From assembly GCA_965261395.1 (NCBI GenBank), contig OZ253462.1, positions 6,144,001 through 6,208,000 of the forward strand: 64,000 bases of DNA. Direction: 5' to 3'. The position numbers were made by a program, and so were the translations under genes. Each line of letters starts with the position of its first letter. The first letter of the stretch is position 1. Origin of the DNA: Candidatus Latescibacterota bacterium (GTDB taxonomy: Bacteria > Latescibacterota > UBA2968 > UBA8231). The notes under the pieces are model-generated. The model was not told the origin of the DNA, made no database searches, and saw nothing but the letters and a program-made list of their open reading frames with translations. Of the stretch, positions 9,702-18,441 are shown piece by piece.

Positions 9702-12700
9702 TTAACTTTGACGCGGCTGGCCTACAAATTCCACTTCCCGACTACTTGATGCTTGATATCTTTCCGCCTGCATCTTGAAAAACTTGGCATAGATTCCATC
9801 GCGCTGGACCAATTCCTCGTGTCGGCCTTCCTCGCATAGACGGCCCTCGTCGAGCACTAAGATGCGGTTGGCCGTTCTGACTGTTGATAGTCGGTGTGAC
9901 ACCAAAATGGAAGTCCGGCGGCCAGCGATGTCCAACAGCAATTTGTACAACTCATACTCGGCCTCCGGGTCCATCGCCGCCGTCGGTTCATCCAAAATAA
10001 GTACTTCAGCCTCCACCTTATAGAGACAACGGGCAAGGGCCAGATGCTGCCACTGCCCAACCGACAGATCGGTACCCTCCAAAGATCGCCCCAACTGGGT
10101 TTGTAGGCCGTCGGGCAACCCCTTGAGAACGTGGTCTAAACGGGTTGCGACGACGACCTCATCTATGCCGCCATCGGTATCCTCTCGATGCATGTCGCCC
10201 AGCCGAATGTTGTCTTCTACGGTTTGCTCGTACTGGGCAAAGTCCTGAAAGACAGCCGATGTCGCCGTGAGCAAGGCATTCTGGCCATCGGCGCGAACCT
10301 CTTTACCGCGAAACAACACCTTTCCTTCCGTCGGCTCTAGCAAGCCACAGAGCAGCTTCGCCAATGTGGTCTTGCCCGCACCGTTTCTACCCACGAGAGC
10401 TATTGTATCGGAGTCATAGATGTCAAACGAGATGTCATTGAGCGCATTGCCGCGCTCCCCGGGATAATGAAAGCTGACATTTCTAAAACTGATCATGGGC
10501 TCATGTGCCGCCTGTATTCCTCGTCGCGCTTGGGATGGTTGGGCAGTCTCGTCCTCGTTTCCTTCGGGAAGGTTCATGAATTCAAAGTAGTCCGATATGA
10601 ACAAGCTGCATCGGAACAATTGGGCAATTCCATTCGCCATGAGCCTTGTCGCATTGCGAAACTGGAGCGTAGCGGCCAAACCCATGGCCAAGTCTCCGAG
10701 ACTGATGATACCTTGACTGGCGCGCAGAACGATGAAGATATAGATCCCCGCCGCAGCGGCTATGCTTGGAATATCTGCGATTATTACTATCTTGTTTCGC
10801 GCTAGGAACAGCGCGCGATTCTCGCGGTAGCACTTCTCCCAAATCGCCTTGTAGTTTGCCAGCCAGTGTTGGGCAAAACCAAAGATCCGCACCTCTTTTG
10901 CATACGCGCGATCGCACAATACCTTTGCATGATATTCAAGGCGACGACGATCCGAACTCTGATACCGGAAAAGTTCGTGACCATCGAGTATGTAGCGAAG
11001 TTGTGATAAGAAATAGGGGATTGCTGCGACGATAACAAGGAGCGAAAGCCAGCCACTAAAGAGTGAGAGAAGGGCCGCAACCGAGACGAGACCTAAGATA
11101 GAAGATATCGCTTGGAAGAGGAAAAGCGACGTGTATTCAGGCCAGCCTTTTCTTTGTTCTGCTGCTTCTATCTTGTTGTAGAACGCGCTGTCCTCATAAC
11201 AGCGATATGGAACCCTACTAGCTTTTTCTGCCAAATCGTGCTGAGCCACATAAGTGGCCCTGGGTGCATTAGGTGATTGTTACGGTTTTGGTGGTTGTTT
11301 TTAGGTTGTCTCGGTACTGCTGAAAGACCCGGTCAAGCGTTCCATTGTACAAGGCGCAACGCAGGGCAAGAATGGCGTTGCTGTTTTCCTTATACCACCA
11401 AGCGCCCGAGCGTTTCAGACGAACATGGCCGATGAAGCGATGCGCCGATTCGATCGCACCCGACCCGATCGGGTATCCGCCCTTGCGATGGCTGCCGAAA
11501 TCGACTTGATGCAATCGCTTTTGCAGGTACGTCAAGGCCGTGCCGATCGCTTCTTCGGCCTCTTCCGAGACCGCCTGCATGCGCTGCAGACCCCAAACCA
11601 CGCCGGTGCCCTCACCGCAGAACAGGCGCGCCAGAGTCGCTTCCAGCCAATGGCTGGCGCGCGCCGCATCGGTGCCGTATTGAGCCTCGGCCACCGCGTG
11701 CAGGTAGCGGCTACAATGGTAGTAGTCGAGGATCTGACGGGCGCTCGGGAACAGTTCCTCCACCCATTTCCAGATCCACGGGGCTCCGTCCCCGATGGCA
11801 CACAAGCGCACCTGCTCCTCCGGGATCAGCCCCGCCTCCTTGACCTGGCGCAAGGCCGAGCCGAAGGCCTGTTCGTCGCCCATCTGGTGCCAGGAGATCA
11901 GCTGCTCGATGCGCTCATCGTCTACCAAGTAGAAGCGAAAGCCCTTGGCTTCGTGGTATTCACCCTGCCAACGCCTTCGCCGAGCCCGGCTCTTCTTGCG
12001 CCCCGGACGAGTCCCTTTGGCGGTCTCGGGACGACTGGGCACGTCGGCCGCGTCGATGGCCAACACCACGATGGGCCGCCACTTGCGAGCGGCGGCGGCT
12101 TGAGCAATGCGATCCTGGATGTCGGCCGCGTCCGGACACACCTGCAGCACGTCCAACGACCCGGTCTGTTGCAGCACCTCGTGAATCACACAGTCGCTCA
12201 TCGACGCGTCGGTCAGCTCGTCCAGCAGCTTCGCGGCGCGCTGGTGGGGCATCTCCAGCGCCAGCTTGACCCCGGCGTTTTGAACGTCCCACTGCTTGCG
12301 GTGCCCCGACAGGCCCAGGGCCTCGTCCAGCGGATAAAAGCCGTGCTCACAGGAAACGCAGTAGAAATAGGGCCGCTCCAAGGGCACCGGCCCGAGCAGC
12401 GTCTCCACCGTGCGCGAGCGCGACGGTCGCGCACGCAGGACGCGCTCACACTTCGGGCAGGCCGCCTCTTCTTGCGCCAGGAACTGGCCGTGGCGGCGTT
12501 CGATGAAGGCTTCCACCACCGCCGCGGTAAGCCCGGAGCGCTCTTGCGACACCGCCTCGGTAATCTCCATCAACGTCGGCGGAGTAGATCCGTGCTCGCT
12601 CATTTGCGTCTCCACCCGATCCAGCAACTCGTCCAGGGCTTCATGCGCTCTACTTCGAAAGCGCGCCCACTGCTGCCGCTGCTGAAAGGGCGCCAGAGAG

Positions 12701-13193
12701 AGAATCGCAGGCATTGCTCCCCTTCTTTCTCAATCGAGGGGAGCGTGCCGCGGGGGAGGCGGCAAAAGAATAGAACAAGTTACTGTAAAATATACACATA
12801 CGTACCGAAATCGTGCCATAACAATCGGCTAAGGTGCCCAGTGGCCCTTGTGCCCAGAATCGCTCTCATTGGACGCCATAGAACATCAGTCGCCAACGCG
12901 ACGATCCACACCGCGATTTGCCCCCCCATCAACACGCCGAGCGTCGTGTACTCCATCGGCTCATTGGCCTGCCGAGCGATCCAGAGCGACTCGGCTTCAT
13001 CGACCAATAGCTTTGTGAAATAGATAGAAATAGAAACCGCAATACCATCATAGATCGTCAGCAGCATTGAAAGGATGAAATAGGCCCTACCAGCCCGCTG
13101 ATATACTTTCAGTATCTGCGGGAGGAGTGTTAAAAAACACCGCAAGCCAGATGCAACCTCGCGGAATTTATACGCCATAATGAGATCCCTCAA
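9702..13193 (-). pseudogene. ABC exporter (fused permease-ATPase) interrupted by an IS
   Basis: Walker A GRNGAGKT, signature LSVGQWQ, LILDEPT, SHRLST. Removing 11262-12839 plus one TSD copy gives continuous ...ILGTRATYVAQHDL... Confidence 0.9.
11262..12839 (-). mobile_element. ISKra4/ISLre2-like (UPF0236) insertion sequence, transposase 11269..12714
   Basis: 9-bp TSD AGTGGCCCT at 11253-11261 and 12840-12848; ends GGGTGCATTAG / CTAAGGTGCCC; motifs IGDGAPWIW, ILDYYH, GYPIGSGAIESAH, RLKRSGAWW. Confidence 0.9.
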
Positions 13194-13264: not shown

Positions 13265-14626
13265 TCAGGACCCATCACAATAAGCCATCCGCATCGGCAT
13301 CAGCACGGCAGCGTGGTGATCCTCTCCCGCCTCGAAGTGAAGGGGTGCCTCACTATGCGCAAGATATATCCGTATCTCCTCCCCCCCGTCTTTCAGCGCC
13401 TCCACAATCGTTGTGAGGAAGTCGTGATTGAGGCCGGCGCGGAATGATCCTCCATCCTCGATATTCGTCACATCAGCAGGGCAGCTCACGGAGTGCTCCC
13501 AGTCCGGGAGGTCGTCGCCGTGCAGGTCGTCCGCATTTTCTCCGTTCTGACTGAACCCCTGATCCCGCGTCGTTCGCAGCACCAGCTTCCCCTCCACACC
13601 CGACACCCGCATCTCTACGCTAGGCACGTACTCCCAGCCACTTTTCACCAGTTCGTGGCGGTCTCTGAGGAACGGCTCGATCTCCTCCACGCAGGCCATT
13701 AGGTGCTCGCTGCGCACGACCGCCAAGATCGGACCGTGGGAGCCGACGGCCTCTTGGTATTTGAGGTACGGTCCGGGAGTTGATGGCAACGTCACTCTGC
13801 AGCCGTCCGGAGTCCGCAACGTGGCAGATTCCTCTTCGATAATCAGCGTTGCCGAGTCCGTCTCCGGGACCATTCCAGCTTGCAGCGAATCGAGGATCAC
13901 CGGGGCCGGCAGCGACGCCAAACCTTTGCTCGACCAGTTGAGCAGCCGCGAGCCGTCGGTCGCGACAATCCTACCACCGGCGTCGAGACAGACGCAGTGC
14001 ATAATGGGCCGCTTGGGATCGTCGCTTGTGAAGCGAGCTACGTGACGCAATCCGGCCAGATCGTCCGGCCCGAGTTCGAATGTCTGTGCAGTGCTGGATT
14101 CCGCCATCGCCATGATCTCCTTTTGCAGGCGTTTCCGGGCCTTTTGCAGACGGCTCTTTACCACTCCGATTTGGAGGTGCAGCAAGGTTGCTGTCTGCTG
14201 ATAGGAATAGCCCTTGAGGTAGTGGTGGACGATCACGTCTCGGTGGGAGTCACTCAATCGTCCGATCGCCTTCCGCACCAACGCCCTGATCTCCTGCTTC
14301 TCCTGTTCAGGCGGTACCGCGAGGTCGAGCTGATCCAAAAGATTGAGTTGCGTCAGACGGCGCCGCTGCCACATGCGTGCTTTGTTGTCCGCAATCGAGC
14401 ACAGCCAGGCACCGAACCGGTCGGGAGCGCGCAGCTCCGCTAGCTGCTGGTACGCGGCAATGAACGCCTCCTGTAGGACGTCCTCTGCCACCTCTTGCGA
14501 GCCCAGCCTGCGGGTGAGCCGCACCAGCAACCACGGCGTGTGTTCCTCAACGAGCGAACCAAACGCCGCCGAGTCGCCAGCAGTAGCCCTCTGCACGCAG
14601 CTTTCTCCATTCCGTTCCATGGTCAC
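13265..14626 (-). CDS. ECF sigma-70 factor fused to DNA polymerase III beta-clamp-like domains II-III
   Basis: aa 1-170: sigma2 (AEDVLQEAF, FGAWLCSIA) and sigma4 (YSYQQTATLL, VKSRLQKARKRL). aa ~180-453: DnaN-like FTSDDPKRPIMHCV, VATDGSRL, GPYLKYQEAV, GLNHDFL, VLMPMRM. Confidence 0.85.
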   Translation of the reverse strand: MTMERNGESCVQRATAGDSAAFGSLVEEHTPWLLVRLTRRLGSQEVAEDVLQEAFIAAYQQLAELRAPDRFGAWLCSIADNKARMWQRRRLTQLNLLDQLDLAVPPEQEKQEIRALVRKAIGRLSDSHRDVIVHHYLKGYSYQQTATLLHLQIGVVKSRLQKARKRLQKEIMAMAESSTAQTFELGPDDLAGLRHVARFTSDDPKRPIMHCVCLDAGGRIVATDGSRLLNWSSKGLASLPAPVILDSLQAGMVPETDSATLIIEEESATLRTPDGCRVTLPSTPGPYLKYQEAVGSHGPILAVVRSEHLMACVEEIEPFLRDRHELVKSGWEYVPSVEMRVSGVEGKLVLRTTRDQGFSQNGENADDLHGDDLPDWEHSVSCPADVTNIEDGGSFRAGLNHDFLTTIVEALKDGGEEIRIYLAHSEAPLHFEAGEDHHAAVLMPMRMAYCDGS

Positions 14627-14746
14627 CCTTATAGTTGCTTCCTAGGCGACAAAGGTATCCGAAAAAAGGAGCCGTCGGGACAAATTACGCCTGCATCTTC
14701 AATTCGGTTAGTGGTTCTTTTGTAGGTTGGACGTGAATCCGACGGG

Positions 14747-15997: not shown

Positions 15998-16806
15998 CGC
16001 GCCCGTTTTAGTCCGGTTTGCGTAAAATCGCGGTCGTCGAGGTCAGTCTGGAATTGAAAATCCGTCCAAGTCAGAACGGTACTTTTTCCGGTCAGATGAT
16101 TAACCATCGTCATCTCGCTAGCGCGCCAGTAACGCTCTAGGTACTGCTGGTAATTCCCCAAGGTGAGCGTCTTCAGATGGGCATCCTTGCGGTCGTAGTA
16201 CTCCACTTTCCAAACGCGCAGCTCGTCCTTGTCGCGCCAGACCACTTGGCGGCTATAGCCCGATTTCTTATCGACGGCAACGCGTTCGGAAACCGTGCAG
16301 GTCAAATCGCCGCAAGGCTCGTCGCGCAGGTAGCGGTAGGTGAATTTCTCCACGGCCGGGGCAGTCAGATCTTCATAGGCAAATTCGCTCCCCATGAAGG
16401 AGCCGGATCGATTCGACGAACTAATGCGCTTGACGCGTTTCAGAGCGGGTAGATAGAGCCATTGATCGTCCGCGCTTTCCCCATGCGAGTGAATGAGCAA
16501 CGCCGTTCCCTGGACATCGCGCGGCTCATCAAACACAAACAGACTCTTGTCACCATCTTCGGCGACTTCAAGAATTTTTACCCGGAGCTGGCGTCGGCTC
16601 TCTTGTCCGTGTTTGTTGCGCAGCACCATGATTTGCTGGGCCGTAAAGTTGCCAAAGCCTTCCTCGCGAGCGCGGGAATCTTGGGCGATTTTCAGCCCGG
16701 TTTCCTCGGGGGTGGCATTTTCGGAATGGGTGGGTGCCGCGCCAAGACAGGTCAAAATGATCAGACAACGCGCGAAAAACGACAGCATTGGTCGTGCGGG
16801 AATCAT
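15994..16806 (-). CDS. outer membrane lipoprotein-sorting protein (LolA-like)
   Basis: DDQWLYLPALKRVKRISS..SGSFMGSEFAYEDL; ATG at 16806 is coupled to the MMPL stop. Confidence 0.88.
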   Translation of the reverse strand: MIPARPMLSFFARCLIILTCLGAAPTHSENATPEETGLKIAQDSRAREEGFGNFTAQQIMVLRNKHGQESRRQLRVKILEVAEDGDKSLFVFDEPRDVQGTALLIHSHGESADDQWLYLPALKRVKRISSSNRSGSFMGSEFAYEDLTAPAVEKFTYRYLRDEPCGDLTCTVSERVAVDKKSGYSRQVVWRDKDELRVWKVEYYDRKDAHLKTLTLGNYQQYLERYWRASEMTMVNHLTGKSTVLTWTDFQFQTDLDDRDFTQTGLKRAR

Positions 16807-18441
16807 GAATTTCTCCGGTCGATGGCAATCAGCAGCGTCGGAAGAAGTAAAAAGTCGGCAGCAAGCGCGAAGAGGATCGTCATCGTGACCAAAAGCCCGA
16901 GTGCCCAACTTACCTCAAATCCCGATGTGGCGAACACCAGAAAGCCTGCCGACAAAACGGCGCTCGTCGTCCATAACGCATGGCCCACAGTGCGAAAGGC
17001 GGAGCGCACGGCCTCGGGTGCTGGAAGGCCCTCGCGCCGGGCCTTCAGATATTTGCTCAGAAAATGAATCGTATCGTCCACGACAATTCCGAAGACAACG
17101 GCGATCACTACCGACGTAGCGGTCATCAAAGTACTGGGCCATGTTGTCGCTTAGCTCAATGCGGGGAATGCCGAATATTAGCACAACAACAATCAAGGTG
17201 ATGGCCCCAAGCAGGAATGTACTGCGGGCAATTACAAAGTCGGCAAAGCGGTCGAAGAAGGCCGTTCCCTCGGACTGAACAAGACGCACGCGCAATGGCA
17301 GAATCGAGAGCAATGCCGGCAGGAGCGTCATGGTATATATGAGAGCGCATAATACGCCAAACGCCACGTAGTTGCCCAAGACGTGAAACGGCGGCGAATC
17401 CGAGGCATTCAGGCTGAGGAATCCAATCGCCGTGGTGACCGAGGTGATGAATACCGGATAGGCATTGATGCGAATCGATTCGACAATCGCCGCGTTTCTA
17501 TCCAGACCACGTCTCATGCCCAGTAAAACACTCGTGACGATGTGGATTGAATCCGCGATGGCTATCACCATGACAATGATCGGCACGCCAGCGTTGGTCG
17601 GGCTGAACACCACGCCGTTCCAGCCGGCGAATCCCATAGTGGTATTGATGACAAACACGAGTACGGCGACGATGGCCACGGTGCCGAGAACCGAGCGCAG
17701 GAGAATAATTGTGACACCTATGATGATGAGAAATACAATAGGTGTCAGGGTCTCCATGTCGTTCTGGGTGGCATCGGAGAAAGTCCGGTTCATGACGACA
17801 TCGCCGGTCATGTAATAATTGATTCCCGGGTGGTCCGTGCGGGCTTGCTCCAGAAACGAATTGAGATAATCGGTAATTTCGACCACGGCCTGATCTGGGT
17901 TTTCAGGCAGGATGAAATTGATAGCCACTCCGGTCGTGCGTCCGTCGTGAGCGACCAGACGCCCGGCAATTGCAGCCGCATCCAGCGCGATCTTTTCGAT
18001 GCGCACCACATCGGCATCGCTCAGTGCATGCGCGTCCTCGACGAGCGGGGCGACAATGAGTTCATCCTCAAGGGCTTCGCTATGGGTATAGTTAGTGAGG
18101 GAGTTGACGCGACTGGAATAAGGCGTGCGCCACGCAGCTTCGGTCAATTCCTCAATCGCGCCAAGCGCCTCGCGGGTGAACACCGAACCCTCGCGCGGCG
18201 CAATAGCAATCAGGGCCGTATTGGAGACGGAGTACGTGTTCTCCAAGGCGTTGAAAGCGGCGAGTTGCGGATTGTCTGCGCTAAACAGAACGTGGTAATC
18301 GTTGGTAACGGTGATGAAGCGAACACCAGCCGTCATAGCCAGCATGACCAGCGTTGCGAGCGCAACGACCAGCCAGCGACGGCGCAAAATGGCGGCGATG
18401 TAGCGTTCCAAGCGCAAAAGAGTCGCCCCCTCGACCGTCAC
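16803..18441 (-). pseudogene. MMPL/RND family transporter with an internal deletion and frameshift
   Basis: First repeat intact (IAIADSIH, TSVTTAIGFLSL). After YFDDRY the sequence jumps, in another frame, to SVVIAVVFGIVVDDTIHFLSKY, so most of the second periplasmic/TM repeat is missing. Confidence 0.85.

Follow-up and report, generated by a model that had tools for sequence, protein, structure and literature searches.

The 64,000-nucleotide stretch of the Candidatus Latescibacterota genome that was analysed here (the window) carries a gene for an extracytoplasmic function (ECF) sigma factor, which is fused at its C-terminal side to a homologue of domains II and III of the beta sliding clamp. 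The linker between sigma regions 2 and 4 has a look-alike of the clamp-binding motif, QLNLL, and the core of this look-alike, a glutamine at residue 93 followed by a hydrophobic residue at position 96, is kept almost throughout a fusion family of at least 90 distinct proteins. In a complex model the linker peptide is predicted to sit in the peptide pocket of the clamp-like module. We tentatively suggest, with somewhat less than even confidence, that the linker docks in this pocket and holds the sigma factor off. The parts of the gene are the following:

13265-14626, minus strand: ECF sigma-clamp fusion gene, 453 amino acids (aa) from a GTG start, assigned by Pfam, NCBIfam and homologue searches
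14357-14554, minus strand: sigma region 2, residues 25-90 (Pfam PF04542 Sigma70_r2, E 1.7e-12)
14336-14350, minus strand: QLNLL, clamp-binding-motif look-alike, residues 93-97, at the start of the sigma2-sigma4 linker
14321-14332, minus strand: QLDL, second look-alike, residues 99-102, not conserved and with a predicted local distance difference test (pLDDT) below 50 in both full-length models
14126-14281, minus strand: sigma region 4, residues 116-167 (Pfam PF08281 Sigma70_r4_2, E 1.9e-11)
13283-14095, minus strand: clamp-like module, residues 178-448, a homologue of domains II and III of the beta sliding clamp
13943-13963, minus strand: ATDGSRL, residues 222-228, in the predicted pocket, with an identical string in the genome's own DnaN and an invariant G225
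13286-13303, minus strand: LMPMRM, residues 442-447, in the C-terminal strand of the module and in the predicted pocket

The fusion protein matches the NCBIfam model TIGR02937 (sigma70-ECF) with 84.9 bits, the cut-off being 42.9, and has the layout of an ECF (group 4) sigma factor, which is formed by sigma2, sigma4 and a short linker, while region 3 has no Pfam match. QLNLL stands at the start of the sigma2-sigma4 linker, since the Pfam bounds place region 2 at residues 25-90 and region 4 at residues 116-167. The translation of 13265-14626 on the minus strand reads ...WQRRRLTQLNLLDQLDLAVPPEQ... around the linker, and the segment of the open reading frame (ORF) with both motifs, also translated from the minus strand, reads ...NKARMWQRRRLTQLNLLDQLDLAVPPEQEK..., with the linker string RRLT-QLNLL-D-QLDL-AVPP. 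Both look-alikes therefore lie exactly where the preliminary description of this DNA, which was made from the letters alone, had placed them.

The C-terminal module is a homologue of beta-clamp domains II and III. AlphaFold2 models of the protein, which have a mean pLDDT of 81-83, are matched to beta clamps by Foldseek with E about 1e-12, and VIA-align superposes the module on beta clamps with Z 20-24 and a root mean square deviation of 2.3-2.8 Å over about 230 residues. In this superposition residues 179-448 of the model fall on residues 123-366 of the E. coli beta clamp, that is, on domains II and III down to the final residue. The complex of UmuC with the clamp (PDB 4k74, identified by its title) is among the structural matches of the module. 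Sequence searches point the same way. A profile of 23 modules compared with 1.84 billion representatives finds 11,571 proteins at E <= 0.001 and 49 at E <= 1e-30, and it finds proteins of DnaN length at about 1e-15 through their residues 125-275, while the profile search of the PDB with the module gives beta clamps at 5e-4 and weaker. The Pfam family DNA_pol3_beta_3 (PF02768) is matched by 10 of the 23 family modules, with a best E of 1.9e-5, and residues 176-453 of the window's own fusion protein match no Pfam family at E up to 1. The "fused clamp" of the preliminary description is thus a true clamp homologue, but one of two domains rather than a whole clamp: by VIA-align, domain I of the three-domain clamp is absent. 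Without it, the module cannot build the head-to-tail dimer ring in the manner of an ordinary clamp.

Relatives of the fusion were collected from protein and genome data. Searching by word index with the module yielded 58 proteins, almost all of which have sigma domains and a length of 440-480 aa; 36 of these homologues were aligned with the window protein (alignment A1), 22 short or near-duplicate rows being excluded. The scan of species-representative genomes gave 61 loci, 48 of them with an ORF of at least 400 aa; the other 13 were dropped as truncated, broken or unfused. Most of the 61 loci lie in metagenome-assembled genomes (MAGs) labelled Candidatus Latescibacterota and some in Gemmatimonadota, while two are labelled Verrucomicrobia (L052, L054) and one Lentisphaerae (L056, with a broken frame). 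A search among representatives of 50%-identity clusters yielded 40 more fused proteins at 20-38% identity, which make 41 representatives with the window protein. The 90 fused sequences are kin and not independent, and 22 of them read QLNLL. The controls are the 95 nearest unfused ECFs (27-41% identity) and the 11 sigma paralogues of the same genome. The module also occurs in another architecture: two relatives (P0219 and P0246) have no sigma domain and bear a Cys-rich, SEC-C-like tail (CPCGSG..K..CCG).

At the level of sequence, the conserved segments of the clamp peptide pocket are retained in the module. VATDGSRL, GPY and LLMPLR-type segments are common to the module and to the genome's own DnaN, a protein of 387 aa (L001), and the module segment FRAGLNHDF...AVLMPMRM aligns with the C-terminal GFNVSY...VVMPMRL of the Pseudomonas clamp, with N400 falling on GFN. 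M443 is kept in 45 and P444 in 48 of the 49 family sequences, and the near-invariant residues at the core of the predicted interface are G225, L228, Y290, G357, N400, M443, P444, and R446. The equivalents of ATDGSRL, GPY, N400, and LMPMRM presumably line two subsites of the peptide pocket in the E. coli clamp.

A motif as short as QLNLL can arise by accident. The pattern QL.L[LF] is found in 95 of the 5088 proteins of the same genome (a crude ORF set), which corresponds to 0.022 expected occurrences per 453 aa, and QL[SDN]L[LF] is found in 16 of them, so a single copy of the motif is a 0.4-2% chance event. It stands above chance because it is conserved at this position across the fusion family. 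Q93 is present in 49 of 49 homologues. There are 34 invariant columns in all, and from residue 87 to residue 119 no other column is invariant. At position 94 these 49 sequences have L in 31, I in 11 and V in 4 cases, and position 96 is hydrophobic in every one (L 33, F 15, W 1). The 41 representatives, which are diverse in sequence, keep Q in 36 cases and a hydrophobic residue at position 96 in 38. Four representatives without Q at the aligned column have a Q-motif three residues further on (QLRLF, QLSLSF, QLHLAL, QETLT), and other distant members read QMELF and QPALF. L063, a fused ORF of 453 aa related to a module that had seemed to stand alone, comes from a MAG labelled Gammaproteobacteria and reads QLKLF. 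Of the 90 fused proteins, 89 have the core Q-x-x-[LFWMI] no more than 18 residues beyond R88, 45 match the penta- or hexapeptide pattern of clamp-binding motifs, and 31 have strict QLxL[FL].

The 95 unfused ECFs differ from this picture: 2 have Q at the column of residue 93, and 7 have L, M or F at that of residue 96. The penta- or hexapeptide pattern is found in 15 of 41 fused representatives, as against 5 of 95 unfused ECFs and none of the 11 sigma paralogues of the same genome (Fisher test of 15/41 vs 5/106, p 3e-6, a value inflated by relatedness). QLDL, which had been described together with QLNLL, does not hold up as a shared feature: at positions 99-102 the 49 sequences have Q in 22, L in 39, D in 22 and L in 19, and the second motif is confined to close relatives.

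Docking of the linker was modelled with the module (residues 176-453) and a linker peptide (residues 84-115), cut from the 48-row alignment. The complex reaches an interface score (ipSAE, the interaction prediction score from aligned errors) of 0.74, with 0.75, 0.74 and 0.71 in the runs, and the best control reaches 0.01; the ipSAE mark applied to the complex model is reached by 58 of 80 solved complexes and by 2 of 110 mismatched pairs. The runs share at least 70% of contacts, and the pLDDT of the peptide partner is 54. Confident contacts are made on the peptide side by residues 88-97 and 99-100, and on the module side by residues 223, 225-226, 228, 288-295, 334, 336, 357-360, 400, 426, 428, 441, and 443-450. 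Modelled Q93 touches residues 443-445, 226, and 400, while L96 touches residues 223, 225, 228, 441, and 443, and the tightest contacts of LMPMRM are those with Q93 and L94. We take this pose of Q93 and L96 to be the canonical one of clamp-bound peptides, in which the two residues would occupy subsites 2 and 1 of the E. coli clamp. The peptide is thus predicted to lie in the pocket, and a passing score of this kind speaks for likeness to and compatibility with docking, not for binding.

If the linker does dock, Q93-x-x-hydrophobic96 (here QLNLL) would be a built-in pseudo-ligand that enters the pocket like a clamp-binding motif. The pocket could be in cis, or in trans on a free module whose translation would begin at an internal start, Met174, which is described below. 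Once docked, the linker and sigma2 would be fastened to the extension behind sigma4, and the protein would be compact. A linker held in this way could not thread through RNA polymerase, so the sigma factor would be kept off, by analogy with ECF41, in which, according to PMC8999054 (section 3.5.1), the extension inhibits by contacting a motif of the sigma2-sigma4 linker and prevents core binding. Stronger canonical motifs, such as the QL[SD]LF of the organism's repair enzymes, or other ligands of the pocket may then displace the linker and release the sigma factor. The inhibitory effect of docking and the release by competing ligands are what we infer from these parts, and the pose in the pocket is what the model predicts.

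Several observations weigh against this reading. Two full-length AlphaFold2 runs, made with alignments of 37 and 48 rows and having predicted template modelling scores of 0.59 and 0.71, give a continuous helix over residues 68-99 and 68-98, with no docked extended motif. Conservation in the predicted interface does not exceed that in the remainder of the module (0.61 vs 0.61, permutation p 0.51), and the score of the complex model may come from the model's memory of dozens of solved clamp-peptide structures. The fifth position of the motif is the least constant: position 97 is L in 30, E in 15, G in 2 and F in 2 of the 49 sequences, and it is L, F or I in only 14 of the 41 representatives. The L97-D98 pair is also generic in unfused ECFs (L in 75 and D in 62 of 95), and Q93 could be kept in this one ECF group for the sake of contacts with the promoter or the polymerase. 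Two expectations of the preliminary description are accordingly borne out in part. Residues 93-96 are placed in the pocket by the complex model, whereas the full-length models leave the segment undocked; and conservation of QLxL(F/L) sets clamp-fused apart from unfused ECFs as far as the Q-x-x-hydrophobic core is concerned, but not at position 5, which is often non-hydrophobic.

The same observations would be explained if Q-x-x-hydrophobic were a group-specific end of the last sigma2 helix, touching either RNA polymerase or the promoter DNA that precedes the -10 element. The module would then regulate or act by way of different surfaces or ligands, and the docking model would be an artefact. 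The helix that both full-length models run through residues 93-98 is what this explanation would lead one to see, as are the generic L97-D98 and an interface of ordinary conservation, and memory in the complex model would account for its pass. One promoter-like motif is moreover conserved family-wide (see below), so residues that read DNA would be invariant as well. We nevertheless consider this explanation somewhat unlikely. Pro is found at position 94 in 11 of the 41 representatives (QPALF, QPPLF, QPLLL), which favours an extended peptide over a helix and would break a helix right after Q93. The most distant members have a perfect QLxLF shifted by three residues, a shift that a fixed helix contact would not tolerate, and Q is scarce at the aligned column of unfused ECFs. 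The modelled helix end itself has a pLDDT of about 50, and pLDDT falls below 50 at residues 95-110 in one full-length model and 97-108 in the other.

The genome that carries the window has canonical motifs elsewhere. QLSLF or QLDLF stands at or near the C-terminus of four of its proteins (L094-L097), which are a UvrD-type helicase, a Y-family polymerase, an O6-methylguanine methyltransferase, and a UDG-family protein. These four are probably clamp clients of the organism, and the canonical QL[SD]LF thus appears to be in use on its repair enzymes; QLNLL of the sigma linker is a near-consensus, internal variant of it. The resemblance raises the question whether the linker might be bound in trans by the cell's DnaN ring, as a genuine clamp-binding motif would be. 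Such binding would couple the sigma factor to loaded clamps, as in phages T4 and Mu, with the fused or free module competing for the motif. ATDGSRL is present in the cell's DnaN as well as in the module, and clamp-dependent transcription is established for MuC (PMC12867686). The sigma motif, though, is internal and beside a folded domain, whereas the four genuine-looking motifs of this genome are at or near a C-terminus, and the pocket in cis has a large advantage in effective concentration. We regard binding to DnaN in trans as very unlikely.

Upstream of the fusion gene there is a promoter-like motif:

14633-14660, minus strand: GGATAC-N16-GCAACT, with the -35-like element at 14655-14660 and the -10-like element at 14633-14638

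The pattern of the family upstream of the fusion gene is GGATAC-N15-17-GCA(A/T)CT (GCAWCT). Of the 30 upstream regions shown, 27 have GGATAC exactly and 3 have it with a single mismatch, and the motif is kept at loci with unrelated upstream genes and in the Verrucomicrobia loci L052 and L054. From its sequence context, the fusion sigma factor appears to drive its own promoter, and a conserved motif of this kind fits an autoregulated, functional sigma factor. The position of the motif also bears on the start of the gene, which is probably the ATG at 14620-14618 instead of the GTG at 14626. Since the motif stops 6 nucleotides (nt) ahead of the GTG, the ATG is the likelier start, and the mRNA would have no leader or almost none. 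Homologues in the database start with MERNGE.

An active, self-driving sigma factor is also what one would expect if docking were constitutive and positive, positioning sigma2 and sigma4 for the polymerase or stabilising the protein, with no competing ligand involved. The evidence for docking and for conservation serves this possibility as well as it serves an inhibitory linker, and part of the ECF41 extension is required for the active conformation (PMC8999054). The kept pocket segments together with a near-consensus motif would fit an exchangeable binding better, and on that ground we think a purely positive role quite unlikely, although the data favour neither sign of the effect.

The strict promoter pattern stands before a gene of the same genome only at the sigma gene, and a relaxed scan of this genome gives 102 sites, 11 of them upstream of ORFs. 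A regulon was sought from the pattern and none is claimed. The closest second match in the same genome, at G000:C1:1052379-1052409 on the plus strand, reads GGATACCTTT, 12 further bases and GAAACTAAT, and may be due to chance; it lies 57 nt upstream of an ORF of 291 aa whose likeness to aldo-keto reductases was judged by eye only. Several of the 31 genomes have a second copy of the promoter. In the 2 genomes looked at, a near-identical copy, which includes the first bases after the motif, lies 156-209 nt upstream of the gene for a secreted protein of about 430 aa (L092 in G009, L088 in G005), and similar strings occur in G001, G012, and G013. The orthologue of this secreted protein in the genome of the window (G000:C1:5951543-5952835) has no such promoter site.

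Within the fusion gene, a putative second translation start is found at the junction of sigma4 and the module:

14105-14121, minus strand: internal start signal, with AGGAG at 14117-14121, a 9-nt spacer and the ATG of Met174 at 14105-14107

An in-frame AGGAG lies exactly 9 nt ahead of the Met174 ATG in 41 of 42 loci, and L063 has AGGAG, 6 nt and ATG. Met174 is present in 49 of 49 sequences and, among the 41 representatives, at the aligned column in 30 and within two residues of the junction column in 38 (read from the rows). The codons that make up AGGAG are always xAG-GAG, against a background in these genes of 66% GAG among Glu codons and 62% AAG among Lys codons. The database proteins P0008, P0041, and P0052 begin at the junction Met. 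Judging from these signals, a free module of about 280 aa is probably made alongside the fusion by way of the internal start. Genes for free-standing modules were considered as well and not retained: many database proteins of 260-290 aa begin at the junction Met, but the sole genomic relative of these that was checked (L063) is a fused ORF.

The internal start also bears on the statement that the switch would need no anti-sigma factor and that none is encoded nearby. No anti-sigma Pfam domain is found in the 8 neighbouring ORFs scanned, and no neighbour is conserved beside the sigma gene outside the close clade or between clades. The first half of the statement has to be qualified, because the gene probably makes the free module itself and this module could act in trans.

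A wider proposal, which we consider unlikely, is that the gene is a self-contained switch for surveillance of the clamp pocket. A decoy of domains II and III, both fused and free, would hold the sigma factor by the weak built-in motif, and the sigma factor would be released when clamp pockets are filled by other ligands or when unbound canonical motifs become more numerous. Possible triggers would be natural products that target the clamp, phage or toxin proteins, and repair enzymes that have no clamp to bind.

Around the fusion gene, the genes upstream on the same strand encode a DUF1302 protein, a LolA-like protein, and an MMPL transporter, and downstream lies an ABC transporter gene that is split by a gene for a UPF0236-family transposase. 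The apparent split of the ABC transporter covers 9702-13193 on the minus strand, with the transposase gene at 11269-12714 and the fragments at 12780-13193 and 9702-11249. The two fragments match overlapping sets of related loci, of which L008, L010, and L033 are common to both. The MMPL transporter gene (16803-18441, minus strand) seems frame-shifted near 16915-17129, where there are two overlapping ORFs, the longer of them having a tail that looks out of frame.

Precedents exist for the separate elements of the proposal. The regulatory logic is that of ECF41, the pair of pocket and peptide is that of DnaN and its clients, and a sigma factor or activator with a clamp motif is known from phages T4 and Mu. 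Like ECF41 sigma factors (e.g. SigJ of M. tuberculosis; PMC8999054), the fusion is an ECF without a partner anti-sigma gene and with a C-terminal extension of its own, and the regulatory logic proposed here is the same. The extension of ECF41 is SnoaL-like, whereas here it has a clamp-like fold and no SnoaL Pfam match; the linker motif is here a look-alike of the clamp-binding motif, and the free extension is probably translated as well. With DnaN and the motifs QL[SD]LF or QLxLxL the fusion has in common the fold of domains II and III, the ATDGxRL, N and MPMR segments, and the predicted pose of the peptide. It differs from DnaN in that the module is without domain I, the ligand is in the same polypeptide, and position 5 of the motif is often non-hydrophobic.

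Clamp-dependent transcription by T4 gp55 and gp33 with gp45 has reportedly been reviewed (PMC2988020). In phage Mu, MuC carries out clamp-dependent transcription with the host DnaN (PMC12867686). Both phage systems have a transcription initiation factor with a clamp-binding motif that contacts the pocket of a sliding clamp, as is proposed here. In the phages a ring loaded on DNA activates in trans, while here the clamp is a fused fragment that is incomplete as a ring and the contact is proposed to be intramolecular. A literature search, with most subscription journals and supplements outside its reach, found no description of a fusion of a sigma factor with a clamp fragment or of a linker pseudo-ligand. 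The words "clamp" and "DnaN" are absent from the main texts of the ECF classification papers PMC7826278 and PMC7671368, whose supplements list group extensions and may bear on this.

In this family, then, the regulatory extension of a sigma factor is a piece of a replication clamp, which keeps the conserved segments of the pocket, and a pseudo-ligand to match it is present in the linker. With the conserved internal start there is a further layer, in which a fused and a free regulator would come from one gene. If the docking is real, evolution has turned a protein-protein interaction module of the replisome into a sensor or anti-sigma domain, and a compact transcription switch that ligands can displace would be available to engineers. 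Should the gene in addition work as a surveillance switch, an anti-sigma mechanism would have come from a replication protein, and the cell would sense the state of its replisome hub.

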